Below, one piece after another: positions 1-57,722 of a stretch of DNA of 64,000 nucleotides; positions within the stretch are counted from its first letter, which is position 1, and every line of letters starts with the position of its first letter. The stretch is from an uncultured Candidatus Binatia bacterium. Lineage in GTDB: Bacteria > Desulfobacterota > Binatia > HRBIN30. Below the pieces are notes generated by a model. That model saw only the letters and a program-made list of their open reading frames with translations, was not told the origin of the DNA and searched no databases. The translations under genes and the position numbers were made by a program. Location of the stretch: contig CAZHQG010000010.1 of assembly GCA_964534275.1 (NCBI GenBank), forward strand, positions 6,744 through 70,743, in the 5' to 3' direction.

Positions 1-366
1 TACCCCTGCCCCGCAGCTGCCCCCACACCGCCCGGTCCCACGCTCCGACAAGCACGAGCCAGCCGAAGCCCACCAGTAGCGACGGTAGCCACAACACCCA
101 GCTTCGTAGTGCGTGCGCCACCACCCTGCGGAACCTACGTAACCCTTGCCGCAAATCCTTCCGAACTTCGCGGAGGCGCTCGGGCGAATCCTCTTCCACC
201 GCGTATGCCTGCACCGCCTCTAAACTGGCGAGCGCAACACACTGCGCGCTTGACGAGTCCGTGGCAGCCCCTGCCCATCCTACGGCCAGAAACAGGATGG
301 CCCAAAAGAACGCTAGCGAGTGCGTCCGGCCGCGGCACTCAGCCGTTCTCACTTAAGCACACCTCG

Positions 367-759
367 CTAGCGCTGGGGTCTTCCGTGCTCCAACAGCCGC
401 TCGAGCTTCTGCCGAACTACCTCCGCATCCGTAATCGGCTTGGCAATGTAATCGTCGCACCCTGCAGCCAGTGCGCGTTGCTCGTCCCCTGCCATGGCCT
501 GCGCGGTCAACGCGATAATCGGAATACTCCGCCCTACTTCCGTTTGGCGAAGACGCCTCGTCGCTTCCCAGCCATCGAGGACCGGCATTTTGAGGTCCAT
601 GAAAATCAAGTCGGGAGGTTTTTCCGCCACCAAGCGCAACGCCTCTTCCCCGTTGTTCGCCTCGATAATCTCGTAATCGCCGAAGCGCTTCAGCCGATAA
701 ACCAAGATGCGCCGGTTGTCGACATTGTCCTCGGCAACCAGAATTCTCTTCCTGCTCAT
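367..759 (-). CDS. Stand-alone response regulator, single CheY-like receiver domain (about 131 aa). True start is MSRKRILVAEDN inside the longer ORF 367..1005.
   Basis: Translation MSRKRILVAEDNVDNRRILV...DLIFMDLKMPVLDGWEA...IIALTAQAMAGDEQRALAAGCDDYIAKPI carries the canonical receiver acidic pocket, phospho-Asp and Lys. The in-frame ATG at 757-759 is preceded by a purine-rich stretch. It lies downstream of, and on the same strand as, the paralog array. Confidence 0.8.
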   Translation of the reverse strand: MSRKRILVAEDNVDNRRILVYRLKRFGDYEIIEANNGEEALRLVAEKPPDLIFMDLKMPVLDGWEATRRLRQTEVGRSIPIIALTAQAMAGDEQRALAAGCDDYIAKPITDAEVVRQKLERLLEHGRPQR

Positions 760-862
760 GGGCCCAAGCTTACTAAGATTCCGTGCCGCATGCCAACCAA
801 AAAAAGGCCGCTGCCCTCGAACAGGCAGCGGCCCCTTGCAACCCAGCGTCAGCGAAGGCGCC

Positions 863-2083
863 TCAGTAAGCGACCGTATCCGCCTGAGCCTTGTCACCGC
901 GCAAATGGATGTTGAACGCGGCGGAACGAACAGCGTTGTTGTTCGGGTTCCGATGAAATTCCTCCACGATCGCGAGGATTCCGCTTCCGGGGTTCCCGTC
1001 TCCACTCAGCACCGGCCGGATCACCGTCTGTCCGGCTAGTGTTCCCTGCACACCAACATTGAACACCGAGAACGCCTCTTGTCCCGGCCGGCGGTCCAGC
1101 TGCGACAACTGAACCTCTCGGAAACACCGGAACCGTGTGCTCGCGGACATCCTTTGCTCGAACTCGTTAAACACTACGAATTGAAGCGTGTGCACGGCGG
1201 GGTTGTCGTCCACCTCTAACCGCTCGCTGCATGGAACCAACGTAATTTCGCTCGTCACCTCTCGCGCCGCGCTCAGGAGCGCATTGTCGAAGAAGTGATC
1301 CACGATGACCTGGGCGGAACATCCCGCATACTCACGATTTCCTCCCCCGAGTACCAGCGTTGTGTCATTTTGCGTGCTGCCGTCACTCAACACAGCCTGC
1401 ACACCCACGGCATTGTACGTTTGCACGTCCACTATTGCATTGTTCACACGGTAGATTGACGCATTCCCAACAAGGTCGTTGCGATTCACCGGAATGTTTG
1501 GATCGTTCCCGCTACCTACAACCTGCACACACTTCAGCTCTCCTTGGAAAATTCCCGGTGACAAAGGCGGTACGCGCCCAATGTCCTGATCTTGGCACAG
1601 CCCACCACCCGCACAGTCGTTATTGGCGCTGCAGGGAAACCCGGGCGAGGTTCCGCCCACGCAAAATCCGGTAGTCACCACACCCTCGCTCGCCCGCCAT
1701 CCAACCGGCTGATTCGCGGTCAGATTCAAATCGAAGTTGATCGCCTGGCAACTACTGAGCGTACAAATGCCACCGCCAGCGCAATCATCATTTGTCCGGC
1801 AAGCTCCGTCTCCGTCCAAGCCTCGCCCAATCGTACACCGCGGCGTCCCATCTACGTAGAAGCAATGAACAGAGGTGGCGTCGCGGCTGGTGTTTGTAAT
1901 CCGGATTACGGTGTCCATCGGTACCCCGTTGAGAGCGCCGCTCGGATCTACCACGACCTTTGGAAACACCAGGTAGCCGGCCGCCTCTTCCGTCGATACC
2001 TTCTGCCCAACAGCCGTGCTAGCCAGTAGCCCGCACGCAAGCAACGCAACCGGTAATCGAATGGCCATTCTCGCGTTCTTCAT
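863..2083 (-). CDS. Secreted protein, paralog A of an uncharacterised tandem family. Has a signal peptide and two CxxxDDCAGGG cysteine-rich inserts.
   Basis: ORF 863..2113, with start refined to MKNARMAIRLPVALLACGLLASTAVG (signal peptide, GAGGGTG RBS upstream). Shares motifs FPKVV, HCFY, NF(D/E)LxLTxxQP, PP(V/L)xPGxFxGxLxC, YNA, LVPCS, NEFEQ and AAFN with three neighbouring ORFs. Confidence 0.7.
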   Translation of the reverse strand: MKNARMAIRLPVALLACGLLASTAVGQKVSTEEAAGYLVFPKVVVDPSGALNGVPMDTVIRITNTSRDATSVHCFYVDGTPRCTIGRGLDGDGACRTNDDCAGGGICTLSSCQAINFDLNLTANQPVGWRASEGVVTTGFCVGGTSPGFPCSANNDCAGGGLCQDQDIGRVPPLSPGIFQGELKCVQVVGSGNDPNIPVNRNDLVGNASIYRVNNAIVDVQTYNAVGVQAVLSDGSTQNDTTLVLGGGNREYAGCSAQVIVDHFFDNALLSAAREVTSEITLVPCSERLEVDDNPAVHTLQFVVFNEFEQRMSASTRFRCFREVQLSQLDRRPGQEAFSVFNVGVQGTLAGQTVIRPVLSGDGNPGSGILAIVEEFHRNPNNNAVRSAAFNIHLRGDKAQADTVAY

Positions 2084-2125
2084 ATCACCCTCGCTTCGTT
2101 TGCACCGCCACATGGCACTCCCTCC

Positions 2126-3160
2126 CTAAGGCAAGCGAATCGTGGCGGACGTAGCCCCGCCAGTATGGAGGTTACTCGCTGCGCTGCCTGTCACTCCGGC
2201 TTGGTCAATGTGGAAGGACTCCGCCACGCCCACCAACCCGGTCGGTAGCCTTAGTTGCGCCTGAGCAAAGATGGTCGCGATCGCTCCACCCGTCAGCAAC
2301 GTCGACCGAAACTGCCCGGTTGTTTGCGGCGTATTCCCGAGGTCGATTGTCGTCCAGCACTGATGGGGAAATGATCCACTAAAGGGGGATTCAAATTCGT
2401 CGTACACGATGTACGACACCGTTCCGTTGCTCCGCACTCCAGCGGCAAGGTCCAGATTGCACGACAACAGCGTCAGGTTCGTCGCGATGAACGAATTCAG
2501 ATTCGCGTTGCCCAGGTCTTCGATGACCGGGTCCAGCGAGCCACGCGGACTGAAATTTAGGGTCAGCGAGCCTGGGCAGGTCTCGTATTCGCTGCCATCT
2601 AATGCCAGCGGGTTGCTGAGGCTCTGCGACACTGCAGCCACGGCGAACGCATTGTATTTGCTCACGTCGCCGGTGTTGTCATCCATGATGGTCACTTCCC
2701 CCTTGAGCCGGTTTTGACCCCGGGGATCGCCATTGGCGTCAACTTCTACACACACAAGCGCCCCTTGGAATCCGGGTGGAACAGGCGGAATCAACCCAGG
2801 GTCGAAGCCCGCGCCGGCGCTACCAAACGAATCTGTCGGGTCCACCCGGCGGCCTTGCGACACCCTCCATTGCGTAGGCTGCTGCCGAGTGAGCACAAGC
2901 TCGAAATCCACCGCGCCACAGTACCCACTGCCGTCTGGGGCCGACAGGTAAAAGCAGTGAACCCAGTTGATGGAGTTCCCGGTATTCGTGATTTGCACGA
3001 TCGTGTCGCGCTGGCCCGTGCGGACGACCTTCGGGAACATCAAGATCGAGCCCGGCCGATCCGTTCCAGATCTCGTCTGCTGCGCCTGGGAGCCGGCAGC
3101 GCCCGCGAAGACGCACAGCATTCCGATCCCCAAAAGCCAGCTCCTGTACAGTGCCCTCAT
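2126..3160 (-). CDS. Secreted protein, paralog B of the same uncharacterised family. It is the shortest member and lacks the Cys-rich inserts.
   Basis: ORF 2126..3190, with start refined to MRALYRSWLLGIGMLCVFAGAAGSQA (AAGGAGG RBS immediately upstream). Contains FPKVV, HCFY, DFELVLTRQQPTQW, IPPVPPGFQGALVCVEV, YNAF and YDEFES motifs. Confidence 0.7.
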   Translation of the reverse strand: MRALYRSWLLGIGMLCVFAGAAGSQAQQTRSGTDRPGSILMFPKVVRTGQRDTIVQITNTGNSINWVHCFYLSAPDGSGYCGAVDFELVLTRQQPTQWRVSQGRRVDPTDSFGSAGAGFDPGLIPPVPPGFQGALVCVEVDANGDPRGQNRLKGEVTIMDDNTGDVSKYNAFAVAAVSQSLSNPLALDGSEYETCPGSLTLNFSPRGSLDPVIEDLGNANLNSFIATNLTLLSCNLDLAAGVRSNGTVSYIVYDEFESPFSGSFPHQCWTTIDLGNTPQTTGQFRSTLLTGGAIATIFAQAQLRLPTGLVGVAESFHIDQAGVTGSAASNLHTGGATSATIRLP

Positions 3161-3235
3161 GGCTATCCTCCTTGCGGTCCGTCCCCGCATTGTTGACTCC
3201 TTTTTAAGTTCGCCTGGCTACTCATCGGCGCTGGC

Positions 3236-4444
3236 CTACGGCAAGATCATCAAGTCGCTCCGGCCATTCCCCTGCTGATGCAGGTCGTACGCCGCACTGC
3301 TCAGCGTCCCAGTGGGGAAATTCGCCTGCGCTACCCCGAGAAGCCCCGATCCGAGAGGCGAAACGCCACCCACCCCGCGGATTCGGGTTTGCCCCCCAAG
3401 CGTACCAGCGACGCCAGCACTGAAAATCGAGCGCGCAGGGTTGCGCGTGTCGATGCGCGATAGCTGCGTGGCGTGGAAGAGGCAATCCACAGTGCGGCTC
3501 GTCGAGAAGCGCTGCTCGAACTCGTTGAACACCAGAAACTGCGCTACCGAGCGGCCAGGTGTTTGGGTCGAGAAGTCGTTCGAGCACGGAACCAAGGTCA
3601 AGTCCGATATGTACTGAATCGCAACATTGTTCGTGATGGGATCTACTGCGCCGTCGAACATGTGGCTGAGAATCAGCACCCCGGGGCAGGATGCATAGTT
3701 GCCGCCGTCGGCTAGAACGAGCTGGCCGTTGGAAACGGGATTGCCGGTCGCCTCGAGGCCAACTGCATTATAACGAGCTGGATTTAGACCGGTTAGAATG
3801 GTGGCGTCGCCGTAAAGCTTGTCTCGGGTAGCCGTCTGGTCGGGGACACTCTGGCTGCCTCCGGTAAACTGGATGCACACCAACGCACCAATGAACGGAT
3901 CTTCTGGAACCGGGGGAATCGCGCTGCCCAGGTTGCTTTGACCGGTGTTGCAGCCGACGTTGTTTGGGCATTGCGCATCAGAGAAGCACTGGAGGTTGAC
4001 AAACGGGGCATTGCACCGAAACGGGCCTTCGAGCGGAAACTGCCCGCGCGCAAGCCCGTCGCTCGCATACCATGCCAGCGGCTGCTCTTGCGTGAGTACA
4101 ACATCGAAGTCGGTTTCGTTCCAGCTCGGCACGCACTCCCCGCGGCCGCCACAGTCCGTCGCATCGCGGCAACCAGCTCCATCGTTCGAACAGTGGCCGG
4201 TAGCGTTGATGTAAAAACAGTGCGCCTGTTTAATACCGCTCGCGTTTGTGCTGCTCAGCATCAGGCGCGTATCCGTCGGCGCTACCAACCAACGAGCGCT
4301 TGTGTCTACCACTATTTTGGGCCAAACCACGATGGACGCCGGTCGGTTCGTCGTGCTTCGGGCATTTGCAATACCAGCCATGGCCACCAATGCCACGCCC
4401 GCGCCTACTCCCATGCGGGCAGCCGCTTGCCACATCTTCTTCAT
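3236..4444 (-). CDS. Secreted protein, paralog C of the same uncharacterised family.
   Basis: ORF 3236..4606, with start refined to MKKMWQAAARMGVGAGVALVAMAGIANA (signal peptide, AAGGAG RBS). Motifs WPKIVV, HCFYINATGHC, CRDATDCGGRGEC, DFDVVLTQEQPLAW, LVPCS and FNEFEQ. Confidence 0.7.
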   Translation of the reverse strand: MKKMWQAAARMGVGAGVALVAMAGIANARSTTNRPASIVVWPKIVVDTSARWLVAPTDTRLMLSSTNASGIKQAHCFYINATGHCSNDGAGCRDATDCGGRGECVPSWNETDFDVVLTQEQPLAWYASDGLARGQFPLEGPFRCNAPFVNLQCFSDAQCPNNVGCNTGQSNLGSAIPPVPEDPFIGALVCIQFTGGSQSVPDQTATRDKLYGDATILTGLNPARYNAVGLEATGNPVSNGQLVLADGGNYASCPGVLILSHMFDGAVDPITNNVAIQYISDLTLVPCSNDFSTQTPGRSVAQFLVFNEFEQRFSTSRTVDCLFHATQLSRIDTRNPARSIFSAGVAGTLGGQTRIRGVGGVSPLGSGLLGVAQANFPTGTLSSAAYDLHQQGNGRSDLMILP

Positions 4445-4523
4445 CGCCGTACTCCTTTCGCTGCTCAACCGAGCTCGCTGCGATCTCGTCCGAATCGTCA
4501 CCATTTGCGCACCTCCGCCGCTT

Positions 4524-5795
4524 TTATGGCAACGTGATAATGTCGCCGAATCCCGAACGGCTACCCTCGTGGCGCAAGTTAAAGGCAGCGGTGCCAACCG
4601 AACCACCCAAGCTGTAGAATTCTTCCGCCACGCCCAAAACGCCCGAGGCAGGCAGGCAGCCTAGCACAGTGCCCCCAGGGCCGGTCTGCACGTTGGTGCC
4701 GCAGTCACTATGCTGGGTGCAGGAACTGCCCCTGTTCGAACCGGAATAACAAACGTTGATGGGACGAGGCGAAATGCGGATCTTCCAGAGGTCCTGGTTG
4801 CCGTTCACGAAGACCCCGCCGCCCGAAACCGGGAGGTCGGCGAGTCGGCGATTGAGGAAACAATCGAACGAGAAGGCCTCGATACTGAGCGGCTGCTCGA
4901 ACTCGTTGTATCCCACGAAACGAACACGCACAGGTGCGGGAAGGTCCTCTTCGATCAGTTCACTACAGGGAACCAACGTGAGCTCCGTGCTAATGGTGGC
5001 ACCCGTAAACGCGTCTGTGACACCCTCTGCGTTTGCCGTAAATACCAAGCTTGCTGGACAATAATTCAACTCTCCGGCACCCGTGCCGGTCCAGTTGAGC
5101 CGCAGCTCTTTATCCGTATTGAGGCCACCGCCTCCTACATCCGCATTCGCGGCTACGGTCAGGGCATTGTACTCGCTAATCTGCGCCGAACTAAGGTCCT
5201 CGATTGTCGCAGTGCCCTTCAGAGCATTCCCCGGAAACGGATCACCATCAGAGTTCATTTGGTAGCACTTGAGCTCGCCTACGAACTGGCTCCCCACCGG
5301 CGGAACGAAGGACGCCTGGTTCTGCCCAATCAACAGTCCAGGACACACGAGCTGTCCGGACGTGTCCACGGTACATTGGCAGTTCTGACCCGGGCGGCAT
5401 GGAGCCGAGGGAATGGTTGTGAGCCTCCCAGTGGACACCCGCCATTGCACAGGCTGCTGCGCGGTCAGAGCGAGTTCAAAATTCGTTGCATTGCACACGC
5501 GAATGCACTGCTCGTTCGTAGGACAGTCCGCATCGATCTCACAGCTCTCGTCTGTTGTCAGGCTGCAAGTCCCTGAGGCGTTGATGTAAAAACAGTGCAC
5601 CTGAACGAAAGAGTTTGTCCGGTTGCTCAGTTGGATAAGGGTATCGCGCACCCCATCGGACACTACCTTCGGAAAGATGATCAACGTGCCGGACTCATCC
5701 GACGTCACGTCTCCCCGTGCACCTGGCGCCGTCACCAGCCCCGCCAGCAGCACGCCTAGGCCCATCAGCCAAGGACTCCGCTTCACCAATCGCAT
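4524..5795 (-). CDS. Secreted protein, paralog D of the same uncharacterised family.
   Basis: ORF 4524..5948, with start refined to MRLVKRSPWLMGLGVLLAGLVTAPGARG (GGAGGCG RBS). Motifs FPKVV, HCFYINASGTC, CEIDADCPTNEQC, NFELALTAQQPVQW, LVPCSE and YNEFEQ. The C-terminus ends ...ITLP, like paralogs B and C. Confidence 0.7.
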   Translation of the reverse strand: MRLVKRSPWLMGLGVLLAGLVTAPGARGDVTSDESGTLIIFPKVVSDGVRDTLIQLSNRTNSFVQVHCFYINASGTCSLTTDESCEIDADCPTNEQCIRVCNATNFELALTAQQPVQWRVSTGRLTTIPSAPCRPGQNCQCTVDTSGQLVCPGLLIGQNQASFVPPVGSQFVGELKCYQMNSDGDPFPGNALKGTATIEDLSSAQISEYNALTVAANADVGGGGLNTDKELRLNWTGTGAGELNYCPASLVFTANAEGVTDAFTGATISTELTLVPCSELIEEDLPAPVRVRFVGYNEFEQPLSIEAFSFDCFLNRRLADLPVSGGGVFVNGNQDLWKIRISPRPINVCYSGSNRGSSCTQHSDCGTNVQTGPGGTVLGCLPASGVLGVAEEFYSLGGSVGTAAFNLRHEGSRSGFGDIITLP

Positions 5796-5944
5796 CGTAC
5801 GCCTCCTTTCGGTCATTCCAGCGTATGGCAAACGCCAGGATCTTTTCACCGACCCCAGCACAAACGCACGCGATGTATGCCCCAAAGGAGCACAAGAGTC
5901 AAGCCGAAATTGAAAATTTGTTCCTTGATGGCGTGGTGCGACGC

Positions 5945-8419
5945 TCACGGCGAGCGTCGCACCACGATTTCCGTCACAGGCCCTGGTCGCCCGCTCGTAT
6001 CGAGTACGCGTGCAGTCAACACCGTGTCTCCCACCGCGAACTCCAAGTTTCTACTGACCACAGCGCAGAATTGCCTTCCGCTACTCGGCAGGTTCGGCGT
6101 GATCGTAGCCTCGAGGCCGTCTGGCCCAAGAGTACAGGGTTCGCTCGGGAGTTTCGGGTCGAACCGGCAAGCAAAATCCACCAGCGCATCGATTTTGTCC
6201 GGCGCAAAATCCGCAACGCTCACGCCCGGCACCCCGCCTCCACCTTGAGCTACTGGCTGCGTGTCGCAAATCGTAGTGGAACCGTTCCCTAAGTCTCGGT
6301 TGCTCAGGATTTGCAAGCTCGGGTAGATCCCCAAGCCCGGGGTCGGGGGAGGCACGCTGGTGCCAACCGTTCCTCCCCCACTTCCAGGCCGGGCTTCCAA
6401 AACGAGATAGAAACCGGAGGAACTCCCGATGCGAAAAACTCGCCGGCCGGATCCGTCGAACTCTGGAGTTGGCGTCGGCGTGCTGCCGCAGAGGCAGCTC
6501 GGCTCGTTGCACCAGTAGCAGCCGTTCGCGCGGACCACTCCGAAGAAGGTGACGATCGGGCCGGCAGCAGCACTGGTGGCCGTCGGTGTGGCGGTGATTG
6601 TCGGCGTGGCAGTGATCGTGCGCGTGAGGGTGATGGTCGGGGTGGCGGTCGGGAGCGGCGTATTCGTCGGTGTGCGCGTGGCCGTACCTGTCGGAGTACT
6701 CGTCGGGGTGGCAGTGAACGAGCGCGTTGGTGTCGGAGTACGAGTCGAAGTCGGCGACCAAGTGTTGGTGGGTGTCAGCGTCAGAGTCGGCGTGCGTGTG
6801 GCTGTAGCCGTGCTCGTCTCGGTTCGCGTAGGAGTAGCCGTGCGCGAAGGAGTCGGCGACCACGTGCTCGTCGGCGTCCACGTAACCGTCGGCGTGCGTG
6901 TGGCTGTGGCTGTGCTCGTCTCAGTTTGAGTAGGAGTAGCCGTGCGCGAAGAAGTCGGCGACCACGTGCTCGTCGCCGTCCACGTGCCAGTGGGAGTTCC
7001 GGTTGCCGTGGCGCTACTCGTCGCGGTTCGTGTAGGCGTCGCTGTAGGCGACGCGGTGGGGGACCAGCTTGGCGTGGCCGAGGCCGTTGGAGTTCCCGTG
7101 AATGTAACCGTCGCGGGTGGGCTGGCAGTTCGGGTTGCCGATGGAGACGCCGTGCCCGACGAGGTGGTCGTGGAAGTCGGCGAAGCGCTCGCCGATGGTG
7201 TGTTCGTCGCGCTCGGTAAGGGAGTTCCCGAGGGCGAAAGGGTCGGAGACGGCGTAGCCGAAGAAGATCGCGTCGGAGTCGCGGTGTTGGACCCTGTGAG
7301 CGTTGGCTCCGGCGACGGCGTCATCGAGGGATTGGGGGTATCTGACGGTGTGCTGGTCGCCGAAGCCGTGCTCGACGGGCTGGGCGGGTTCGCCGTAGCC
7401 GTGGGAGAAGGTGTAGGCGTCTCGCTCCTCGTGGCACTTGGCGTTGCCGAGGGCGTTCGCGTGCGCGTGGGCGGGATCGTCCAAGTCGGAGTCGGTGTCG
7501 CTGTGTTAGACACCGTTGCCGTTGGCGTGCGTGTGGTCGTTGCCGAGCGCGACGGCGTGACGCTGGCCGTTCCTGTAACCGTTGCAGTCGCCGACAACGT
7601 TGGTAGGGGCGACTGCGTGGACGTGGCGGTGCCCGTGGGGCTCGCTGTCGCCAAGGGCTCTACTGGAGAGGGGCTCATCGAAGGCGTAGGACTCCCCGTC
7701 GGCGTAGGTTCTGCCGGTGTATCGGTAGGTTGTGGGGGCGGGGTCACCGAGGGCAACGGGGATTCGGTCGGAGACGCCAAGCCGGTTGCTGTCGGAGTTG
7801 GACTGAGCGACGGCACCGTAGTAAACATGGGTGTCGGTGTCCGGGAAGACGTCGCGGCCGGCGTCACGCTGACGGTCGGCGACGCTGAGTGGGTCGGACT
7901 GGGAGTTGGCGTCGACGAAGGTAATTCGTTGGCCGATCGCGTGGGCGATGGTGTGGATGTGGGCGATGCGGTTGGCGTTCCAGTGGCCGACCGAGTGCCT
8001 GTCGGAGTCGAACTGCGCGTTCGTGTCGGAAGCGCGGTGACCGTACCTGTTCCGGTTGGCGTTGCAGTTGCAACGGCACTCGCTGTTCGCGTGGGAGTTG
8101 GGGTAGAGGTGTCGGTTGGAAGGGACGTTGCGGTTGCGGACGCCGATGGACTCGGCGTACCGGTCGAGACCGGTGACGGGGTTTCAGAAGGAGGAGGCAA
8201 CACCAACAACCCAGCAAACCCAATGATGTCCGCAGCCGTCGCCCGCCCGTCGCCGTTCACGTCCGCCTGCGGACAATACGGATCCTCGAAGAGCGAGGCA
8301 GCAATCGCCGCGACTTCGGCGTCGGGTATGCTATCGCAGTTCACGTCGATGCTGACCGCGCTGGCAGTACTGGCCACCAGCCACAGCGTCAGCAGTCGCC
8401 CAACCCAACTTCTTACCAT
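5945..8419 (-). CDS. Large secreted protein (824 aa). It has a signal peptide, a dockerin-like double Ca-binding module, a roughly 500-aa Thr/Pro/Ser low-complexity linker, and a roughly 200-aa Cys-containing C-terminal domain.
   Basis: N-terminus [21 protein letters not shown] is a signal peptide. It is followed by [20 protein letters not shown] and [20 protein letters not shown], which are dockerin/EF-hand-like duplicated loops. The long TPTxTPS repeat region explains the junk ORFs in the other frames. It is the first gene of the minus-strand operon and its stop overlaps the frame of paralog D. Confidence 0.7.
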
Positions 8420-8596
8420 CTTATCCCTTGTGCCCCGCGCAGTGTCCTTTCCCGTGAACCTCCGTTGATGCCTACATGCTCCAGCATTTGCAAGAAACCT
8501 CTTTTGGCGTCCGGCGGGAAACAGTCGGGGATGGTTCGCTTACGAATGCGTGGCGCTGTTGACTCGAACTGTCGCGTAGGTTCTGATGCGCGAGTG

Positions 8597-9553
8597 ATGC
8601 GGTCGGTGCAAACAGTTCTTGGTCCGGTGCCGGTGGACCAACTCGGTCTCACGTTGATGCACGAACACCTACTGATTGGCTGGCCTGGGTGGCAGTACGA
8701 CGTTGCAGCGCCACGGAAGTCCCAAAGCGAGATCGCGAAGATTTGCACCGACCGCATGCTGGAACTCAAAGCGTACGGCGTGCAAACGCTCGTGGATCCT
8801 TGCCCGATGGACCTCGGGCGCGACGTAGAGCTGATGGCGCGCGTATCCCAGGATACCGGCGTGCATATCATTTGCGCTACCGGGCTGTACAAGGAGGACC
8901 AAGGCACGCCGCCGTATTTCAAGTTCCGCGCCCAGTTTGCCGACGCCACCCATGAAATCCGCGACGCATTCGTGCGGGAGCTGACCGAAGGTGTTGGCGA
9001 CACGGGCATCAAGCCCGGCCTCATCAAGGCTGCAACTGGTGCGCATCAAGTGACCCCTTACGAGGAGATGGTCTTGCGAGCGGCAGCACAAGCTTCGTGC
9101 GCCACTGGAGTGCCGATCTTGACCCACACCGACGAAGGGACCATGGGCCGCGAGCAGCTCGACATTTTCGCTGCCGAAGGAGTGGAACTTCGCCATGTGG
9201 TCATCGGCCATAGTTGCGGAAGTTCGGACCTCAGGTATCACACCGACCTGCTCGACCGCGGGTGTTTTCTCGGCTTCGATCGCTTCGGTCTCGAGCTGTT
9301 ACAGCCAGACCGCTTGCGCCTCGCTGCTCTCATCGGCTTGATCGGCGTTGGGTTCGCAAAACAGTTGATGCTTTCGCACGACAGCGTTTGGTGTTGGCTT
9401 GGCCGCCCTCTTCCCGTACCGGAAACCGTGCTCCCGCATTGGCGACCAACGTATATTTTCACCGACATCTTGCCGCGGCTTCGCGAAGCAGGCGTGAGCG
9501 ACGCAAAGATCGAAACCATGCTCGTGGCAAATCCGCGGCGGTTTTTTAGCTGA
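8597..9553 (+). CDS. Phosphotriesterase-family (PTE/PHP-like) metal-dependent hydrolase.
   Basis: N-terminus MRSVQTVLGPVPVDQLGLTLMHEHLL matches the PTE-family consensus (G.I....LG.TL.HEH), with further His/Asp ligands downstream. The ORF opens at 8465, and the internal start at 8597 is preferred. Confidence 0.65.
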   Translation: MRSVQTVLGPVPVDQLGLTLMHEHLLIGWPGWQYDVAAPRKSQSEIAKICTDRMLELKAYGVQTLVDPCPMDLGRDVELMARVSQDTGVHIICATGLYKEDQGTPPYFKFRAQFADATHEIRDAFVRELTEGVGDTGIKPGLIKAATGAHQVTPYEEMVLRAAAQASCATGVPILTHTDEGTMGREQLDIFAAEGVELRHVVIGHSCGSSDLRYHTDLLDRGCFLGFDRFGLELLQPDRLRLAALIGLIGVGFAKQLMLSHDSVWCWLGRPLPVPETVLPHWRPTYIFTDILPRLREAGVSDAKIETMLVANPRRFFS

Positions 9554-9600
9554 GCACTCTGTGTTGCCCACGCGGTAAGGGGCGCGGCTCACGGGCTTCG

Positions 9601-10443
9601 TCAACGCTGGTGCAGCCCCCAAGCGTACACTTCACGGCGTGAAAGCCCGTACTCGCGGGCAATGAGTTTTGCAGCGTCGCGAAGCGACACCCCGCTCGCG
9701 AGCAGCTCAGTCAGTTTCTCCTGCCACGGTCGTGCGGGGGTTGCTTGGGCAGGAGGCTCCGGGCAGCCTTCAGCCACGAGCGTTACCTCGCCACGCACAG
9801 GGGCTGGGCGGCGGCTCAGTTCGGCAAGCAGTTCCGCTGGCGTTCCGCGCAAAAACTCTTCGTAAAGCTTGGTCAGCTCGCGCGCGACCACTACGGTCCG
9901 CGCCCCCCAAACAGCTTCCATGTCCTGCAAGCATGCCGGCAGCCGCCGTGCCGTTTCGAACATCACGAGCGTGCGAGTCTCTCGAGCAAGTTCCTGCAGC
10001 CGAGCACGGCGCGCACTCGCCCGCGCAGGCAAAAAGCCCTCGAAGACGAAGCGTTGCGCTGGCAGACCGGCAGCAGAGAGCGCTGCCACGATGGCCGAAG
10101 GTCCCGGCACCGGGACAACCCGGATGCCAGCCGCGAGTGCACTCCGCACCAAATGGAAACCTGGATCGCTCAGCACCGGCGTGCCCGCATCGGAGACGAG
10201 GGCGCCATTCTCTCCCTGCAACAAATGTTCGACCAGCCGAGGCGCCTGTTTTCGCTCGATCCAATCGTAATACGGCGTCAATCGCGTGGTGATTCCGTAG
10301 TGCCGGAGAAGTTTTGCGGTCTCGCGCGTATCCTCGGCGGCAATCCAGTGAACCTCCTTCAGCACGCGGAGTGCCCGAAGCGTAATGTCCTCGAGGTTCC
10401 CGAGTGGGGTCGCGACCACATACAACACGCCCGGGTGCGGCAT
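9601..10443 (-). CDS. rsmI: 16S rRNA (cytidine1402-2'-O)-methyltransferase RsmI.
   Basis: MPHPGVLYVVATPLGNLEDITLRALRVLKEVHWIAAEDTRETAKLL... is the typical RsmI (tetrapyrrole methylase-fold) N-terminus. Length is 280 aa. Confidence 0.85.
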   Translation of the reverse strand: MPHPGVLYVVATPLGNLEDITLRALRVLKEVHWIAAEDTRETAKLLRHYGITTRLTPYYDWIERKQAPRLVEHLLQGENGALVSDAGTPVLSDPGFHLVRSALAAGIRVVPVPGPSAIVAALSAAGLPAQRFVFEGFLPARASARRARLQELARETRTLVMFETARRLPACLQDMEAVWGARTVVVARELTKLYEEFLRGTPAELLAELSRRPAPVRGEVTLVAEGCPEPPAQATPARPWQEKLTELLASGVSLRDAAKLIAREYGLSRREVYAWGLHQR

Positions 10444-10462
10444 GGCACTGCGAGCAGCCCGC

Positions 10463-11407
10463 TCACCGCCCCCAGTCGCGGGCGTAGCGGAAATCCCTGT
10501 CGATGGTGCGCTGAGACACTTTGGCGATAATGGGCAAGCGCCGTTTGAATTGAGAGTTGCGCACCATCTCGCTCACTCTGCGAACGAACGCCTCGGGAAA
10601 GCCTGCCGCCAGTAGCTCGGCGCGCGAGTAACGTAAATCGACCATGCAGTACAGGAGCTGGTCGACCTCCCGGTAGCCAAACCCTAACTCGGCCTCGTCG
10701 GTTTGTCCGGCCCACAAATCGGCCGTTGGCTGCTTGTGAACGATCTCGGGTGGAACACCCACGTGCGCCGCCAATGCCCACACCTGGGTCTTGTACAAAT
10801 CCCCAAGCGGATTCACCGCCGACGCCATGTCGCCGTGCAGTGTACCGTAACCCAGCAACAACTCTGTCTTGTTGCTCGTTCCCAACACGAGGGCCTGCCA
10901 GCGAGCCGAGTGGTCGTACAGAATGCTCATTCGCTCGCGAGCCATTTTGTTGCCCTGCCGAACGCGGTCGGCATCGGGAAAGCGCGCGAAATACGCGTCG
11001 ATTTGCGGCGTGATCTCTATCTCGAGAGAAGCGACGCCAGCTTTGGCAATCACCAGATCCGCGTGAGCCCGACTCTCAGGGCTCGAAGTCCGATACGGCA
11101 TTTTGATCGCCAACACGTTGTTGGGCCCGAGCGCCTCGGCTGCAAGCATGCAACTCAAAGCTGAGTCGACCCCGCCAGACAGCCCTACGACCACACGCTC
11201 CACGCCGACCTTGCGCACCTCGTTGGCGATGAATGCTGTCAGGATCCGCCGCAGCAACGGCGGATTCGTGGGGATGGGCGGACAACGCCAACGGCGGCTC
11301 GGTCCGAAGCTTTCCGGCGAAGACGGCTCCGGCACTTGCGCGCTAGCGTCGGGAGAGGGTGTTGGATTCTGGCTGGGCATCCTGCACCTCGGACTTTTCA
11401 GCTCCAA
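10463..11407 (-). CDS. nadE: NAD+ synthetase (NadE, synthetase domain). Start uncertain.
   Basis: Contains the [12 protein letters not shown]-loop and extensive NadE similarity. The ORF N-terminus is low complexity and overlaps the upstream CN-hydrolase gene in another frame. No convincing ATG is seen near the domain start (around 11262). Confidence 0.7.
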
Positions 11408-12269
11408 GGACGCCGCCGCTGTCGCGAATGCGCAGCAGCTCTCGAAGCGTCAAATCCAAATTTTCGTCGCGCAGCAACGGTGCGGCCACGCGCTGTCGTC
11501 GGGGCTCTTTCAGCGAGACCTCCGCAACGATCAAGTCCTCTTCGTAGTATTTCGCTTTCGCCAGACGCTGGCCGGCTGGCGACACGATTTCCGAACCACC
11601 CCAGAAGCCAACTCCATCTTCAAAGCCTACTCGGTTGGCATACACGACAAACAGGCCGAACGTCTGCGCATACATGGCGTTCAGCAGTTCCCAATAGGCC
11701 GCGTTGTCGTCGTGGTCGCGCCCATCGGAAATTCCGCGCAAGGGGCTGCTCGACGGGCAAATCACCGCTAGCGCACCGTCCAAGGCAGCAATGTACACGG
11801 TGGACGGATGCCAGAGGTCTTCGCAAATCAAGAGGGCCGCCCGCCCAAGGCCCGAAGCGTAACAACGGATGCGGTCGCCGCGGGCTAAGTAGCGGGCCTC
11901 GTCGAACAACCCATAGGTTGGCAGATACACTTTGCGGTGCACGTGGGCCAACTGGCCATCGCGGAACACAAAGGCGCTGTTGAAAAAACGGTAATCTTCA
12001 CTTTCCTCCACACAGCCCACGATCAGCTCGAGCCCGCGACTCCACTCTGCAAGGCGGGCCACTTCCGGGCTGTCGTGACGTAAGGCCACCGTGGACACCA
12101 TGTCTTTCAGAAAGTAACCGGTCAGCGACAGCTCAGGAAACACAACCAATTCCGCACCGGCAGCGCGAGCTTTCGCGAGCCACTCTTCGTGGATCGCAAG
12201 ATTGTAGCTCACATCACCCAAACGCGGGGCGATTTGCGCAATGGCAACACGGCGAAACAAGTCGGCCAT
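11343..12269 (-). CDS. Carbon-nitrogen hydrolase (nitrilase superfamily), the glutaminase-type partner of NAD synthetase.
   Basis: [31 protein letters not shown]...[15 protein letters not shown] has the nitrilase-family catalytic Glu motif. It lies immediately upstream of nadE on the same strand. Start refined within ORF 11343..12392. Confidence 0.75.
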
Positions 12270-12776
12270 GGCTCGAGTATCGACACGTCCGCCAAAAAAC
12301 ACAATGGCACCGCAGCGCGAGACTGCCCCCCACGATTGCCCCAGACCACAGGCGGCACACTGCAGCGATCTTGCTTCGCCGGCCGTGAACATGGACTTGC
12401 CAAGTCTCGGCGCATGTCGTCGGTGGGCACCGAGCAGCGGAATCCATTAGGCAGGCGCAATTTGGTTGCGAAACGCGCTAATGGGTGATAGGGGCAGCAA
12501 CGGCGATGCACGAGTTGCGGACGAGATGGTGGTGGTTGGTGCAACATCGCGCCCTAGCTGTTTTTGTTCTTCCTCCACACGGCTTCAACGATGCACGCGC
12601 GCTTTGGAAGCGCGCCGATGTGCTCCAGGAATTCGTCATTGGCACACCTGGGGTTGACCTGTATACTTGTAGGCACGTTTGCAAGTGCGGTGTAGCGAGT
12701 GGAGCGATGACGTAGCGGGACGAACAACGAAAACGGCGTGGGGCATCACCGGCGGCAGACGCCAAGGAGCTCAAAG

Positions 12777-14720
12777 GTTATGGTGGACATCGACAAGGCT
12801 CAGTTTCAACGGCTGATCGAAGAAGATCGGGCCGCCCGGGGTGCGAGAGAGTGGCGGGGAACTTTTCTCGATTACCTCGAGCGGGTCAAACAAGATCCGT
12901 CGATCCCCAAGCTTGCCCATGCCCGGATCTACGACATGATCCTGCAAGCCGGCGTGCGGGATGTGCTCGACACCGACGACCCCCGCACGAAGCGGCTATT
13001 CAAAGACGAGCCGCTCAAAATTTACAACTTCTTCGCGGATTCGTTCTTTGGCATCGAGCGCGTGATCGCGCAAATTGTGCGGTACTTCCACGCGGCTGCC
13101 CTCAAGGGCGAGGAAAGCCGGCAGGTCTTGTACCTGATGGGGCCGGTCGGTTCAGGAAAGAGTTCGCTGGTCGAGCACATCCAACGGGGTCTCGAACAAA
13201 GCCCCCCGTTTTATGCGATCGAGGGCTGCCCCATGTTCGAGGAACCGTTGCACTTACTCCCTCGCCACTTGCGGCGCGAGTTCGAAAAAATGCTTGGGGT
13301 GCACATCGAAGGCGACCTCTGCCCGGTGTGTCGTTTTCGCCTGAAAGAGGAGTACCGCGGAAAGTACGAGGAAGTTCCGGTCGTGTTGCGGTCGTTCTCC
13401 AAGCGTAACCGGGTTGGCATCGGAGTGGTGCCGCCGGTGGACCCGAACAACCAAGACACCTCGGTGCTCATCGGGTCGGAAGACATCTCCAAGCTCGACC
13501 TATACTCCGAAGGGGATCCGCGGGTGTTGGATCTCAACGGGGCGCTGAACGTCGGCAACCGCGGCATCGTCGAGTTCATCGAGGTCTTCAAAAACGAAAC
13601 GGAATACCTGCATGCAATGATCACCGCCACGCAAGAGAAGGTGATTCCCGCGCCGGGACGCCACGGAATGGTGTACGTAGACGAGGTGATCATCGCGCAT
13701 TCCAACGAGGCGGAGTGGCAAAAGTTCAAGTCTGACCACACCAACGAGGCCATCCTCGACCGCATCGTGGTGGTCAAGGTTCCCTACAACCTGCGGCTCT
13801 CGGAAGAAGTGAAAATCTACGAAAAAATCCTGCGCAACTCGGACTTCCGTGCCCACATCGCCCCGCACACGTTGGAGATCGCCTCGATGTTCGCAATTCT
13901 GACGCGGCTCGAACCGACGAGCAAATGCGACCTGATGACCAAGCTCAAGCTCTACAACGGGGAAGAGGTGATCGAAAAAGGCCGGACAAAGAAAATCGAT
14001 GTGCGAGAGTTGCGCGAGGACGCAAAGCGGGAAGGCATGTTCGGCATCTCCACGCGCTTCATCATGAAGGCGTTGGACAACGCTTTGTCGGACAATATCG
14101 AAGGCAACTGCATCAACCCGATCAGCGTCCGCGAGGCTTTGATCCAAATGACGAAAGAAGCCGACCTGCCCGACGATACCCGCAAGCAATACCTCGAGTT
14201 CTTGCAAGACACCCTGCACAAGGAATACCTGGACATCCTCGAACGCGAGATCACCAAGGCCTTCGTGTACTCTTACCAAGAGCAAGCCGAAGCATTGTTC
14301 CAAAACTACCTCGACCATGCGGAAGCATTCGTGAACCGCACGAAGGTACGCGACCGGAACACCAAGGAAGAACTTCAACCCGACGAGGCTTTCTTGAAAT
14401 CGATCGAGGAACAAATCGCCATCATCGGTTCTGCGGCCGAAGGCTTCCGGCAAGAAGTCATTGCGTACCTGTGGGCGGCAAGCCGCCGCGGGGAAAAGGT
14501 GACGTACCAGAGCTACGAGCCCCTGAAGGAGGCGATCGAGAAGAAACTGATGACCTCGGTGCGCGACATTAGCCGCATCATCACCAAGGCGCGCACGCGA
14601 GACGAAGAGCAAACGGAAAAGTACAATGCCATGGTGCGCAACCTGCTCACGCAAGGATATTGCCACAGTTGCGTGGACGTGGTGCTCAAATACGCCGCAA
14701 ACAACTTGTGGAAGGATTGA
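12777..14720 (+). CDS. prkA: PrkA family serine protein kinase (YeaG-like).
   Basis: Long colinear similarity to PrkA/YeaG, including the AAA-type GPVGSGKSSL Walker A motif. It is followed by yeaH-like and spoVR-like genes. Confidence 0.85.
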   Translation, partial: VMVDIDKAQFQRLIEEDRAARGAREWRGTFLDYLERVKQDPSIPKLAHARIYDMILQAGVRDVLDTDDPRTKRLFKDEPLKIYNFFADSFFGIERVIAQIVRYFHAAALKGEESRQVLYLMGPVGSGKSSLVEHIQRGLEQSPPFYAIEGCPMFEEPLHLLPRHLRREFEKMLGVHIEGDLCPVCRFRLKEEYRGKYEEVPVVLRSFSKRNRVGIGVVPPVDPNNQDTSVLIGSEDISKLDLYSEGDPRVLDLNGALNVGNRGIVEFIEVFKNETEYLHAMITATQEKVIPAPGRHGMVYVDEVIIAHSNEAEWQKFKSDHTNEAILDRIVVVKVPYNLRLSEEVKIYEKILRNSDFRAHIAPHTLEIASMFAILTRLEPTSKCDLMTKLKLYNGEEVIEKGRTKKIDVRELREDAKREGMFGISTRFIMKALDNALSDNIEGNCINPISVREALIQMTKEADLPDDTRKQYLEFLQDTLHKEYLDILEREITKAFVYSYQEQAEALFQNYLDHAEAFVNRTKVRDRNTKEELQPDEAFLKSIEEQIAIIGSAAEGFRQEVIAYLWAASRRGEKVTYQSYEPLKEAIEKKLMTSVRDISRIITKARTRDEEQTEKYNAMVRNLLTQGYCHSCVDVVLKYAANNLWKD

Positions 14721-14794
14721 ACCTGGCCATGAGCACGGTGTGGTAACTGCGCTGGCCTGGGCATCGTGGTCCTAGGCCAAGGAGCTGAAGACAC

Positions 14795-15976
14795 ATGCCC
14801 ATTCCCGAGTCGATTTTCAGGCCGTTCAATCCGTCCGATGCCGAGCGGAGCGACCGAGCCGCCGGGGATCGTCAGCGACACCGAGAAAAGGTACGCCAGT
14901 CGATCCGCGAAAACATCGCGGACATCATCGCCGAGGAGGCGATTATCGGCAAAGATGGCAGCCGGATCATCAAGGTGCCCATCCGAGGCATCAAAGAGTA
15001 CCGGTTTGTGTACGGCGAAAATACACCCGGAGTGGGACAGGGTGAAGGCGAGCTGGAGCCCGGGCAAGTCTTACGCAGCGGGGAAGGAGAGGGAGAAGGG
15101 CCAGCCGAGCGACCGGGGGATCGACCCGGCGTGGATTACTACGAAACCGACGTCACCCTGGATGAACTCGTCGAAATCATGTTCGAGGATCTCGAACTCC
15201 CGGACCTCGAGCGGCGCAAACTGCGAGAGCTACCAGCGCTGCGAATCCTCAAGCGCAAAGGGTACCGCAGTGCGGGCCTGCGGGTGCGCTTGGACAAGCG
15301 GCGCACGGTGAAGTCCAAGGTGCGCCGGCGTTTAGCGTCGCAGCGGCGGACCGAACTGGGCACGGGCGAACGGTTCCCGTTCCACGAAGACGATTTGACT
15401 TACCGCCACATGGTGCCGGACGTAAAAGAGGAATCCAACGCCGTGGTGCTGTGCATGATGGACACCTCTGGCTCCATGGACACGATGAAGAAATACCTCG
15501 CCCGCAGCTTCTTCTTTCTCCTCTTCCAGTTCGTCCGGGCCAAGTACCGGAACGTCGAACTCGTCTTTATTGCCCACCACACGGAAGCTCGGGAAGTTTC
15601 GGAAGAAGAATTTTTCCACAAAGGAGAATCCGGGGGCACGTTCATTTCTTCCGCGTACCAAAAGGCGTTGGAGATCATTCAGGAACGGTACCATCCTTCG
15701 CTTTGGAACATCTACGCGTTTCACTGTTCCGACGGCGATAATTTCGAGTCCGACAATCCCACGGCACTCAAGTTGGCCGAAGAACTTTGCCAAGTCGCCA
15801 ACCTGTTCGGATACGGAGAAATCAAGCCCCTCGGGTCGCGATATTACGAAAATTCCATGCTTCAACTGTTCCGCCGCATCGAGGCGGACAATTTCCATAC
15901 GGTTTTAATCGAGCGGAAAGAAGACGTGTGGCCGAGCTTTAAAGCATTTCTCGCCCGCGACCGCGTTCGGGAGTGA
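14795..15976 (+). CDS. YeaH/YhbH family protein (DUF444, vWA-like).
   Basis: ETDVTLDELVEIMFEDLELPDLERRKLRE and the C-terminal vWA-like region match UPF0229. It occupies the conserved position between prkA and spoVR. Confidence 0.8.
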   Translation: MPIPESIFRPFNPSDAERSDRAAGDRQRHREKVRQSIRENIADIIAEEAIIGKDGSRIIKVPIRGIKEYRFVYGENTPGVGQGEGELEPGQVLRSGEGEGEGPAERPGDRPGVDYYETDVTLDELVEIMFEDLELPDLERRKLRELPALRILKRKGYRSAGLRVRLDKRRTVKSKVRRRLASQRRTELGTGERFPFHEDDLTYRHMVPDVKEESNAVVLCMMDTSGSMDTMKKYLARSFFFLLFQFVRAKYRNVELVFIAHHTEAREVSEEEFFHKGESGGTFISSAYQKALEIIQERYHPSLWNIYAFHCSDGDNFESDNPTALKLAEELCQVANLFGYGEIKPLGSRYYENSMLQLFRRIEADNFHTVLIERKEDVWPSFKAFLARDRVRE

Positions 15977-15977
15977 C

Positions 15978-17411
15978 ATGCGTTCCTACGACCTTCACGA
16001 CCTGATCGAGTGGGACAAGCGCATCCGCGACAAAGTGGCTGCGTTCGGGCTCGACTGTTTCCCTCAGGAGTTCGAACTTTGCGACCACAATCAAATGCTG
16101 GGCTACATGGCGTACTCTGGAATGCCTTCCCACTACCCGCATTGGTCGTACGGCAAAGCGTACGAGAAACTGAAAACCCTGTACGATCACGGTGTTGCCG
16201 GGCTGCCTTACGAAATGGTGATCAATTCCAATCCTGCACTTGCCTATCTCATGCGCGACAACACGCTTGCCCTACAAATCCTGACCATCGCGCACGTGTA
16301 CGCGCACAACGACTTTTTCAAAAACAACTTCACGTTCCAAAGCACGCACCCGGAGTACGTCATTGGGACGATGAAAAGCCATGGTCAGCGGGTGCGCTCC
16401 TACATCGAGTCGCCCAGCATCGGGATCGATGAGGTCGAGCGGGTCCTCGACGCCGCTCATGCCCTTGCGCTGCAGTGCCGACGCAATCTCGCCGTACGCA
16501 AGCTCAGCGAGGAGGAACAACGGCAACGCAAGCTGGAAGCCGCCAACCCTCGGGAAGATCCGTTCGCCAAGGTGCACAAACGGCAGCCAATCTCCACCCC
16601 AGATCTACACAAGGTGCCGCTCGAACCCGAAGAAGACTTGTTGCTCTTCATCCGCGACCACAATCCGTACCTCGAAGAATGGCAGCGCGACCTGCTGACG
16701 ATCGTGCACGAGGAAGCACAGTACTTCATCCCGCAAATCGAAACGAAGATCATGAACGAGGGCTGGGCCACGTTCTGGCACAAGCGCATCCTCGAGAGTC
16801 TGGAGCTGCCCCAGGATTTGCACTTGGAGTTTCTCGTGCGTCACAACCAGGTGGTGCGCCCGATCCCAGGAGGGCTCAACCCTTACCACATCGGGTGGAA
16901 GATCTGGGAAGATCTTTACCGGCGCTACGAACACCCCGAGCCGGATGAAGAAGAAAGCTTGGAATCCGGGGTTCGTTCTGGCCTGGAAAAAATCTTCTCT
17001 GTGCGGGCAGCCGATCGCGACGCTTCGTTCCTGCGCCGCCACCTAACCGAGAAGCTCGTTCGCGAGTTGCGTTTGTTCGAGTACCGCGTTCGAGGAGGAG
17101 ATTGGGTAGTCACGGAAGTTGCCGATGACGAGGGGTGGCGGCAAATCAAGGAAACACTGATCCGCTCCGTGGGCATGAACAGCGTGCCGGTCATCAAGGT
17201 GGAGGATGCAGACTTCGGACACCAACGGACATTGCTGCTCGTGCACGAACACGATGGGCGCGACCTACACCTGGAATACGCAGAAAAAACTCTCGCCTAC
17301 GTTCACCAACTGTGGGGCCGGGACGTTGCCCTGCAAACGATCGTGAACGGGAAAAAAGTTCTCCTGCAGTACGGCGAACGTGGGTTCACCACGAGGCAAC
17401 TGACCCGTTAA
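15978..17411 (+). CDS. spoVR: SpoVR family protein (YcgB-like).
   Basis: MRSYDLHDLIEWDKRIRDKVAAFGLDCFPQEFELCDHNQMLGYMAYSGMPSHYPHWSYGK is the canonical SpoVR N-terminus. Confidence 0.85.
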   Translation: MRSYDLHDLIEWDKRIRDKVAAFGLDCFPQEFELCDHNQMLGYMAYSGMPSHYPHWSYGKAYEKLKTLYDHGVAGLPYEMVINSNPALAYLMRDNTLALQILTIAHVYAHNDFFKNNFTFQSTHPEYVIGTMKSHGQRVRSYIESPSIGIDEVERVLDAAHALALQCRRNLAVRKLSEEEQRQRKLEAANPREDPFAKVHKRQPISTPDLHKVPLEPEEDLLLFIRDHNPYLEEWQRDLLTIVHEEAQYFIPQIETKIMNEGWATFWHKRILESLELPQDLHLEFLVRHNQVVRPIPGGLNPYHIGWKIWEDLYRRYEHPEPDEEESLESGVRSGLEKIFSVRAADRDASFLRRHLTEKLVRELRLFEYRVRGGDWVVTEVADDEGWRQIKETLIRSVGMNSVPVIKVEDADFGHQRTLLLVHEHDGRDLHLEYAEKTLAYVHQLWGRDVALQTIVNGKKVLLQYGERGFTTRQLTR

Positions 17412-42271: not shown

Positions 42272-42275
42272 CGCC

Positions 42276-46523: not shown

Positions 46524-46538
46524 CAGGGAGAGCTCACC

Positions 46539-48293: not shown

Positions 48294-48301
48294 GGAGCGC
48301 C

Positions 48302-49684: not shown

Positions 49685-49697
49685 GATGAGGCAACGG

Positions 49698-54026: not shown

Positions 54027-54090
54027 AACCATGCGCGTATGGGAACAAACCCATAGCAAGGAACAAATTTCCGTTTCGGGGGTCGCCGAG

Positions 54091-56991: not shown

Positions 56992-57020
56992 CCGCGAGCA
57001 CGCAACCTGCCGTTCCAGGC

Positions 57021-57053
57021 GGCGGAGAGCCAACGCTCTCCGCCGCTTTTTTT
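57021..57053 (+). terminator. Rho-independent terminator downstream of the 986-aa secreted protein gene.
   Basis: ggcggagag-ccaacg-ctctccgcc forms a 9-bp perfect stem and is followed by gcttttttt. Confidence 0.65.
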
Positions 57054-57109
57054 CACTTCTCGACAAGCGGAGAAATAAACTCGAAGTTTTTTCCGTCTTC
57101 CCCGGCCGC

Positions 57110-57649: not shown

Positions 57650-57722
57650 GCACCCTGTTGGCAAGACCAACAAGGTCCCGGGAAAGACGGGTTGACGTCG
57701 GGGCTGCACTGCGGTTCCATGC

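Follow-up and report, generated by a model that had tools for sequence, protein, structure and literature searches.

The 64-kb window analyzed here is a stretch of 64,000 nucleotides (nt) of contig CAZHQG010000010.1, from an uncultured Candidatus Binatia bacterium. On its reverse strand, at 5945..8419, lies a single open reading frame (ORF) of 2475 nt that runs without interruption from an ATG and encodes a protein of 824 amino acids (aa). The sequence AAGGGA lies 7-12 nt 5' of this ATG. From the N-terminus, the protein consists of a putative signal peptide, a two-loop module that resembles dockerins, a very long Thr/Pro-rich linker, and a C-terminal domain, with the boundaries given in Table 1. 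The signal peptide was judged by eye to be a putative Sec signal: aa 1-21 are hydrophobic, end in A-S-A ahead of the predicted cut, and are kept in the ortholog of a related strain (locus L004). Promoter and terminator scans of 5600-8800 returned nothing exceeding expectation, Rfam and tRNA scans of the window gave no matches, and NCBIfam and PADLOC scans of the 824-aa protein and its neighbors yielded noise or nothing.

Full-length frames that are orthologous or homologous to the 824-aa gene are present in the related loci L001, L002, L004, L005, L006, L007, L008, and L009. The frame and its start are common to the orthologs in L004 (822 aa), L001 (885 aa), L007, and L008, and the nearest relatives by source name are "Candidatus Binatia bacterium" and "bacterium HR30". 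The same layout occurs as one gene in L001, L007 (HR30), L008, and L009, as two tandem genes in L002, and as three tandem genes each in L005 and L006; the L009 relative keeps this architecture at 33% identity in the C-terminal domain. Nucleotide differences between the linkers of the window and L004 number 18/21/62 on codon positions 1, 2, and 3 of the 824-aa frame, which implies that this frame is the one under purifying selection.

An earlier note on this DNA had described the Thr/Pro-coding stretch as near-periodic DNA whose length might be mis-assembled, and neither description was supported. Tandem Repeats Finder reported one substantial array in the gene, with a 102-nt unit in 2.8 copies (6747-7036), and otherwise trivial runs of 12-18 nt. 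Exact direct repeats in the gene reach at most 23 nt (at 6851 and 6953), and no 31-mer occurs twice within it; therefore, the interior of the gene holds little to mislead an assembler at k≥31. Self-identity of the gene was 0.45-0.49 at lags that are multiples of 6, with the maximum at 102, compared to 0.30 for the control uvrA. This raised self-identity is a codon-level composition bias and not a repeat array.

The length of the linker was compared with that in L004, an independently assembled ENA contig from a related strain that aligns with the window over positions 362-16375 (16 kb) at 92.7% DNA identity. The L004 ortholog is collinear with the window gene and has the same start, and the two linkers, aligned over 541 positions, share 92.8% of their residues, with one in-frame indel of 2 aa (6 nt) between them. 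Because this independent assembly of a related strain holds a collinear 822-aa ortholog, mis-assembly of the linker is unlikely. Moreover, frames of the same layout in relatives have linkers of roughly 450-850 aa, which implies that the very long linker is a conserved trait and not an assembly product.

These data make it very unlikely that the long ORF is an artefact, either a mis-assembled low-complexity stretch or a chance frame fusing two small genes. Eight independent loci carry an unbroken frame from the signal peptide through the C-terminal domain, the third-position substitution bias and the in-frame indel mark the frame as coding, the L004 linker is near-identical in length, and long exact repeats are absent. 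In favor of an artefact, public gene tables divide the region between a short gene for the C-terminal domain and an ORF on the opposite strand, a JGI contig from a strain with 96% identity stops within the gene, and many homologs are located on contigs of 1-3 kb. We conclude that the 824-aa gene is genuine, correctly assembled, and from a Candidatus Binatia (Binatota) bacterium. Assemblies of short reads appear prone to breaks at genes of this family, and k-mers common to paralogous linkers are one plausible cause of the fragmentation. The JGI contig (Ga0598072_003062) ends inside the C-terminal-domain gene at position 1 of locus L003.

The earlier note had anticipated Arg-, Val/Gly-, and His/Asp-rich phantom ORFs in the other frames, and all three are present in the window (Table 1). 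In the gene table of L001, a 680-aa antisense "protein" (7945-9987, -) and a 203-aa C-terminal-domain fragment replace the 885-aa gene, and in that of L004 a 637-aa antisense ORF (7906-9819, -) is accompanied by a 140-aa fragment. The tables of L002, L005, and L006 contain the same error, including a wrong-frame call of 416 aa in L002. Thus, the gene was mis-annotated in all five related public loci in which the full frame was compared with the gene table (L001, L002, L004, L005, and L006), with spurious calls of up to 680 aa and true genes of 700-1070 aa cut to C-terminal fragments of 140-216 aa. HRbin30_02149 (P0004, 164 aa) appears to be a further truncated call: as read by eye, its 164 residues are the C-terminal part of an 895-codon open frame in L007 (an HR30 contig), although the two are listed on contigs that differ in length. 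Because gene tables truncate the real Thr/Pro-linker genes, proteome-based analyses of Binatota overlook a whole class of large proteins that are exported and include spurious ones. This systematic mis-annotation is the most practically useful outcome of the analysis.

Table 1. Features of the 824-aa gene and its surroundings; positions are those of the window unless another locus is named.
Feature	Position	Strand	Basis or remark
Complete gene, 824 aa	5945..8419	-	ATG start; start and frame kept in orthologs
Putative Sec signal peptide, aa 1-21	8357..8419	-	Read by inspection; also in L004
Dockerin-like / EF-hand-type two-loop module, aa 22-74 (53 aa), with conserved C28 and C49	8198..8356	-	Family profile, alignment
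Loop 1, aa 25-36, degenerate	8312..8347	-	Alignment; unmatched by Dockerin_1 HMM
Loop 2, aa 53-64, canonical 12-residue Ca-binding loop	8228..8263	-	Strict pattern; Dockerin_1 HMM positions 36-49
Thr/Pro/Ser/Ala-rich linker, aa 75-617 (543 aa)	6569..8197	-	Composition; collinear with L004
Tandem DNA repeat, 102 nt (34 aa) x 2.8 copies, 81-86% matches	6747..7036	.	Tandem Repeats Finder
C-terminal domain, aa 618-824 (207 aa)	5948..6568	-	Homolog family, AlphaFold model
Downstream paralog 1, secreted, motifs FPKVV...HCFY	4524..5795	-	Likely start ATG at 5795, after AAAGGAGG
Downstream paralog 2	3236..4444	-	Same family; start approximate
Downstream paralog 3, 354 aa, two beta-sandwich domains in model	2126..3190	-	
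Downstream paralog 4, 416 aa	863..2113	-	
Single-domain CheY-like response regulator	367..1005	-	Response_reg 91 bits over aa 88-197; true start probably internal
PrkA kinase, DUF444, SpoVR triad	12738-17411	+	Synteny with L001 and L004
Phantom ORF, 508 aa, Val/Gly-rich, antisense to linker, not a gene	6942..8468	+	ORF list
Phantom ORF, 302 aa, Arg-rich, not a gene	6311..7219	+	ORF list
Phantom ORF, 266 aa, His/Asp-rich, wrong frame of coding strand, not a gene	6081..6881	-	ORF list
L002 phantom calls over linkers	9016-9966, 11022-12272, 13472-14269 (L002)	-, +, -	Gene table
L005 and L006 phantom calls over linkers	Upstream regions (L005, L006)		Gene tables

The description of the protein in the earlier note as a TP linker of about 500 aa followed by an unknown C-terminal domain was borne out, with a linker of 543 aa and a domain of 207 aa. 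Thr (179 residues, 33%), Pro (103, 19%), Ser (90, 17%), and Ala (62, 11%) dominate the linker, in which Thr, Pro, and Ser together make up 69%, and its charge is net positive (23 Arg vs 12 Asp plus Glu). Linkers rich in Pro and Thr, known as "PT boxes" and usually 20-100 aa long, join the domains of secreted glycoside hydrolases, for example CenA and Cex of Cellulomonas fimi. The window linker is like these in its prevalence of Thr and Pro and in its place between the folded modules of a protein destined for export; like them, it is probably extended and may be O-glycosylated. It differs in its length, its imperfect repeat, and its net positive charge, and its scale is nearer to that of mucin-like or serine-rich-repeat adhesin stalks.

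The C-terminal domain has 152 homologs at E≤1e-3 (best 7e-109), none with a Pfam domain. Their source names, where given, are Candidatus Binatia, bacterium HR30, or "Deltaproteobacteria" metagenome-assembled genomes (MAGs), and when one genome per species was scanned, relatives turned up in three genomes only, of the same kinds. By these searches, the C-terminal domain represents an uncharacterized family found here only in Binatia-type genomes. An alignment of 72 sequences contains the invariant residues E58, G94, G111-G112, D131, C134, R135, Q166, and G196 and four conserved Cys. The AlphaFold model is a beta-sandwich with one helix (predicted local distance difference test (pLDDT) 92.2; predicted template modeling score (pTM) 0.89). 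Foldseek comparison of this model with PDB and BFVD returned no match at E≤1e-3, the best query-normalized TM-score being 0.40, for a PorU domain, and a profile of the domain gave no match to PDB sequences. Foldseek also listed p53-core and GH123 (glycoside hydrolase family 123) structures, which were rejected as a generic beta-sandwich resemblance, with root-mean-square deviations of 9-14 Å. Because the domain is without a Pfam model and without a significant PDB or BFVD match, no function can be read from similarity.

Downstream of the 824-aa gene and on the same strand lie four genes for paralogous proteins, each with a hydrophobic N-terminus. All four align in one family, with identities of 28-31% in the three pairs compared; motifs such as FPKVV...TNT...HCFY are common to them, and their sequences contain Cys-rich inserts. 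At least 408 proteins belong to the family, all without a Pfam domain, and its profile gave no match to PDB sequences. The model of the third paralog (354 aa) contains two beta-sandwich domains (pLDDT 89.4), and its only notable PDB match, which is also the best, is the uncharacterized Thermotoga protein TM1070 (1nc7; E 3e-5, target-normalized TM-score 0.74). A relationship between the paralog family and the C-terminal domain of the 824-aa protein was considered and rejected (profile-profile probability 0.2%).

The order of one or more C-terminal-domain genes, four paralogs, a Response_reg gene, and a further gene recurs in L001, L003, L004, and L006; the further gene matches DUF1232 weakly or not at all. 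The recurrence of this order, including in L006, where the upstream context of the cluster differs, supports the idea that the cluster is a functional unit. In the window, the flanking genes encode a phosphotriesterase-family protein, RsmI, NAD synthase, a CN hydrolase, and PrkA-DUF444-SpoVR, and they are syntenic with L001, a Binatia MAG. Loci L005 (2-8651) and L006 (519-8510) each contain three tandem genes that encode a signal peptide, a two-loop dockerin-like module, a Thr/Pro linker of about 600-850 aa (by eye), and the C-terminal domain. The three tandem stalk genes of L006 are followed by the four paralogs and the response regulator.

Compared to L004, the cluster (500-6500) is 82-92% identical in DNA sequence, with 81.8% in the C-terminal-domain segment, whereas the flanking housekeeping genes (8500-16400) are 94-98% identical. 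The excess of differences in the C-terminal domain falls mostly on third codon positions (17/13/67 at positions 1/2/3), a pattern that points to an exchange of alleles or to old polymorphism and less to simple positive selection. The exported proteins of this cluster, from an uncultured phylum, are conserved and restricted to the lineage, and they appear to diverge fast. The Binatota genome paper makes no mention of secretion or envelope.

The two-loop module lies at the mature N-terminus of the protein. In the six frames of the 64-kb window, loop 2 (at aa 53) alone fits the strict pattern D.[ND].[DN]G.{5}D. In loop 1, D1, N3, D5, and D9 are present and position 12 is Val. Two Cys are conserved, one at position 4 of loop 1 and the other four residues ahead of loop 2, which suggests that the pair forms a disulfide staple. 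The module resembles type I dockerins (PF00404), such as those of Clostridium thermocellum Cel48S/CelS (2mte, 1daq) and a glycoside hydrolase family 9 (GH9) enzyme (4fl4), in its length of about 55 aa, in having two putative Ca-loop-plus-helix segments about 27 residues apart, and in loop 2, which reads D-x-N-x-D-G-x-x-x-x-x-D. It differs from them in its location at the mature N-terminus instead of an enzyme C-terminus, in scoring below the Pfam cutoff, in the missing position-12 acid of loop 1, and in its conserved Cys pair, which to our knowledge is not typical of clostridial dockerins; moreover, no cohesin, scaffoldin, or carbohydrate-active enzyme was found near the window gene.

Profiles placed the module among a large set of proteins. 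A profile of five module sequences matched 5934 proteins at E≤1e-3 when 1.84 billion representatives were searched. The top library matches scanned have 7-12 Dockerin_1 domains (164-343 bits) joined to Peptidase_S8 or PG_binding_1, and the single-module matches P0251 and P0261 fit Dockerin_1 over its full length (39.7 and 37.8 bits). Read by eye and not computed as a consensus, single-module matches start roughly GD(V/A). A second profile, built from six modules of proteins that share the same C-terminal domain, matched PDB dockerins: 4fl4_A (2e-6), CelS 2mte_A (1.6e-5), 1daq_A (1.7e-5), 6kg9_A, and, over the full length, 5lxv_B (8.6e-4). The gathering cutoff of the Pfam Dockerin_1 hidden Markov model (HMM) is 22.9 bits. 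Modules at the N-terminus of the tandem-gene products of L005 and L006 exceed it over the full length (31.9, 27.6, and 23.7 bits), and the orthologous modules of the window, L004, and L001 score 17.5-19.5 bits when compared together. A scan with EF-hand_1, EF-hand_5, EF-hand_6, and EF-hand_7 gave no match to the window module at E≤1; EF-hand_5 was matched by four of the six family modules (best E 0.0036). A word-indexed search with the 57-aa module alone returned no matches. We read the module as a degenerate member of a widespread non-cellulosomal dockerin-like group, which sequence alone does not separate from EF-hand pairs.

What stands at the N-terminus was also classified in 120 listed family members that carry the C-terminal domain. 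A lipoprotein signal with a lipobox Cys, a short Pro/Thr/Ala linker, and then the C-terminal domain make up 19 of these; four have the two-loop module at the N-terminus; and 57 are gene calls with the domain alone, many of them truncated calls. In P0119 the order is reversed, with a single loop at the C-terminus. Among the best 150 module matches, four carry the C-terminal domain and none carries the family of the neighboring paralogs. Because a lipid anchor holds the same position in paralogs, we read the module as an anchoring device.

With moderate confidence, we therefore favor the reading of the 824-aa product as an exported anchor-stalk-head protein for envelope-tethered display. The protein would be exported by the Sec pathway, after which the signal would be cleaved. 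The N-terminal module would fold around Ca2+, probably stapled by a C28-C49 disulfide, and would tether the protein non-covalently to a partner in the cell envelope. The Thr/Pro stretch would form a long flexible stalk, possibly O-glycosylated, and the C-terminal domain would be the displayed head, binding a ligand or partner. Escherichia coli LpoB is a lipoprotein that reaches its target via a long disordered linker, and the same anchor-linker-head logic is seen in the 19 lipobox members of the family. Unlike LpoB, the window protein has no lipobox; a Ca-loop module takes its place, and the linker is 5-10 times longer.

Several observations weigh against this proposal. A Sec signal by itself reaches only the periplasm of a diderm cell. 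Loop 1 is without Gly at position 6 and without the acid at position 12, and it is 2 residues shorter than in P0021. The Dockerin_1 cutoff is not reached by the module alone (16.8-17.6 bits) or by the whole protein (11.9 bits), and the match covers only aa 52-65, which correspond to HMM positions 36-49 and the second loop. The six-module profile matches EF-hand Ca-binding proteins at 1.7e-7, its best PDB matches are Entamoeba Ca-binding proteins, and by these scores it does not tell dockerins from generic EF-hands. No match to the Cohesin family was obtained in any ORF scanned in the window, and no cohesin is among the 50 listed PDB matches of the model of the third paralog. Finally, we infer the "binding head" from the architecture, and this head is without a recognizable relative.

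The proposal of the earlier note that the module contains dockerin type I Ca-loops thus stands in part: loop 2 fits and the family profile matches solved dockerins, but loop 1 is degenerate and Dockerin_1 scores below its cutoff. Against the dockerin HMM to which that note had pointed, the window module is a marginal case, at 16.8-17.6 vs 22.9 bits, although its L005 and L006 homologs pass. The same note's view of the protein as non-cellulosomal agrees with the finding of no cohesin and no glycoside hydrolase in the window.

The similarity to EF-hands bears on an alternative in which the module is a Ca2+-stabilized structural cap, a generic EF-hand pair with no docking partner, and the product is a free periplasmic or secreted protein whose function lies entirely in the C-terminal domain. 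A stabilizing cap so distant from the sole folded domain would be of no obvious use, since the module is always at the extreme mature N-terminus and is separated from the head by a very long linker. It also alternates with lipid anchors in paralogs, and its conservation across 33% to 90% identity argues for a function. Still, EF-hand Ca-binding proteins were matched at least as well as dockerins, the window module with its decayed loop 1 falls under the Pfam cutoff, loop 1 is wholly missing in both tandem genes of L002, and cohesin was not found in the window ORFs scanned. On balance, we consider a structural cap possible but rather unlikely.

In another alternative, the module is a true dockerin within an assembly like the cellulosome, and a cohesin-bearing scaffold encoded elsewhere in the genome binds it and the modules of paralogous proteins. 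Homologous modules pass Dockerin_1 over the full length, and several tandem genes with the same module are present in L005 and L006, but the lack of Cohesin matches in the scanned ORFs of the window and of cohesins among the listed fold matches of the neighboring paralog, together with the lack of a carbohydrate-active enzyme context, makes such an assembly improbable. Furthermore, we found no paper naming both Binatota and dockerin, although pairs of cohesin and dockerin outside cellulosomes have been described from other prokaryotes (PMC9012536). Diverse bacteria and archaea, among them anaerobic methanotrophic (ANME) archaea, have long been known to carry dockerin-like modules that are non-cellulosomal and whose function is generally unclear (PMC9012536, citing Peer et al. 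2009). Therefore, a dockerin-like module on a non-cellulolytic protein is not surprising by itself. The window protein is like these cases in that a secreted protein with no link to cellulose degradation carries one module and no scaffoldin is apparent, and unlike them in joining the module to an exceptionally long Thr/Pro linker (450-850 aa in the family) and a Binatia-type C-terminal domain and in the alternation of the module with lipoprotein anchors in paralogs.

The cluster provides a test case for dockerin-like modules as general envelope anchors outside cellulosomes. What is distinctive here is the combination of an N-terminal module with a Cys pair and a decayed first loop, a linker 5-10 times the usual length, a head without a structural relative, and a conserved cluster found here only in Binatia-type genomes. 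A bolder extension, to which we assign little probability, is that the modules dock without cohesin onto the four co-encoded two-beta-sandwich paralogs, which would act as cohesin analogues. Stalk proteins and paralogs would then build a Binatia-specific extracellular layer of Thr/Pro stalks with fast-diverging heads, a new envelope or adhesion system under the adjacent response regulator.

Other features were recorded elsewhere in the window. The region 39628-51520 contains a mevalonate-pathway and hopanoid gene set, which encodes two GHMP kinases, a flavin mononucleotide (FMN)-dependent dehydrogenase, HMG-CoA reductase, squalene-hopene cyclase, an amine-oxidase-type flavoprotein, and a radical-SAM protein with DUF3463. 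A 591-aa ORF at 46175-47950 (+) overlaps the end of the cyclase gene, has no Pfam match, and has a third-position GC content of 0.49, compared to 0.64-0.77 in its neighbors; this ORF may be spurious or foreign. At 54031-56991 (+) lies a gene for a 986-aa protein whose sole Pfam match is one DUF4215 Cys-rich repeat (29.5 bits), and the adjoining ORFs at 56923-57534 and 57510-58667 have no Pfam match. Finally, an apparently non-coding stretch at 38430-38740 contains a 37-nt unit in 3.2 copies at 96% identity (38510-38628), with more copies of the core of this unit, GGTGTGTGTCCT(C/G)AA, at about 38440, 38670, and 38713; this stretch may be a cluster of binding sites.

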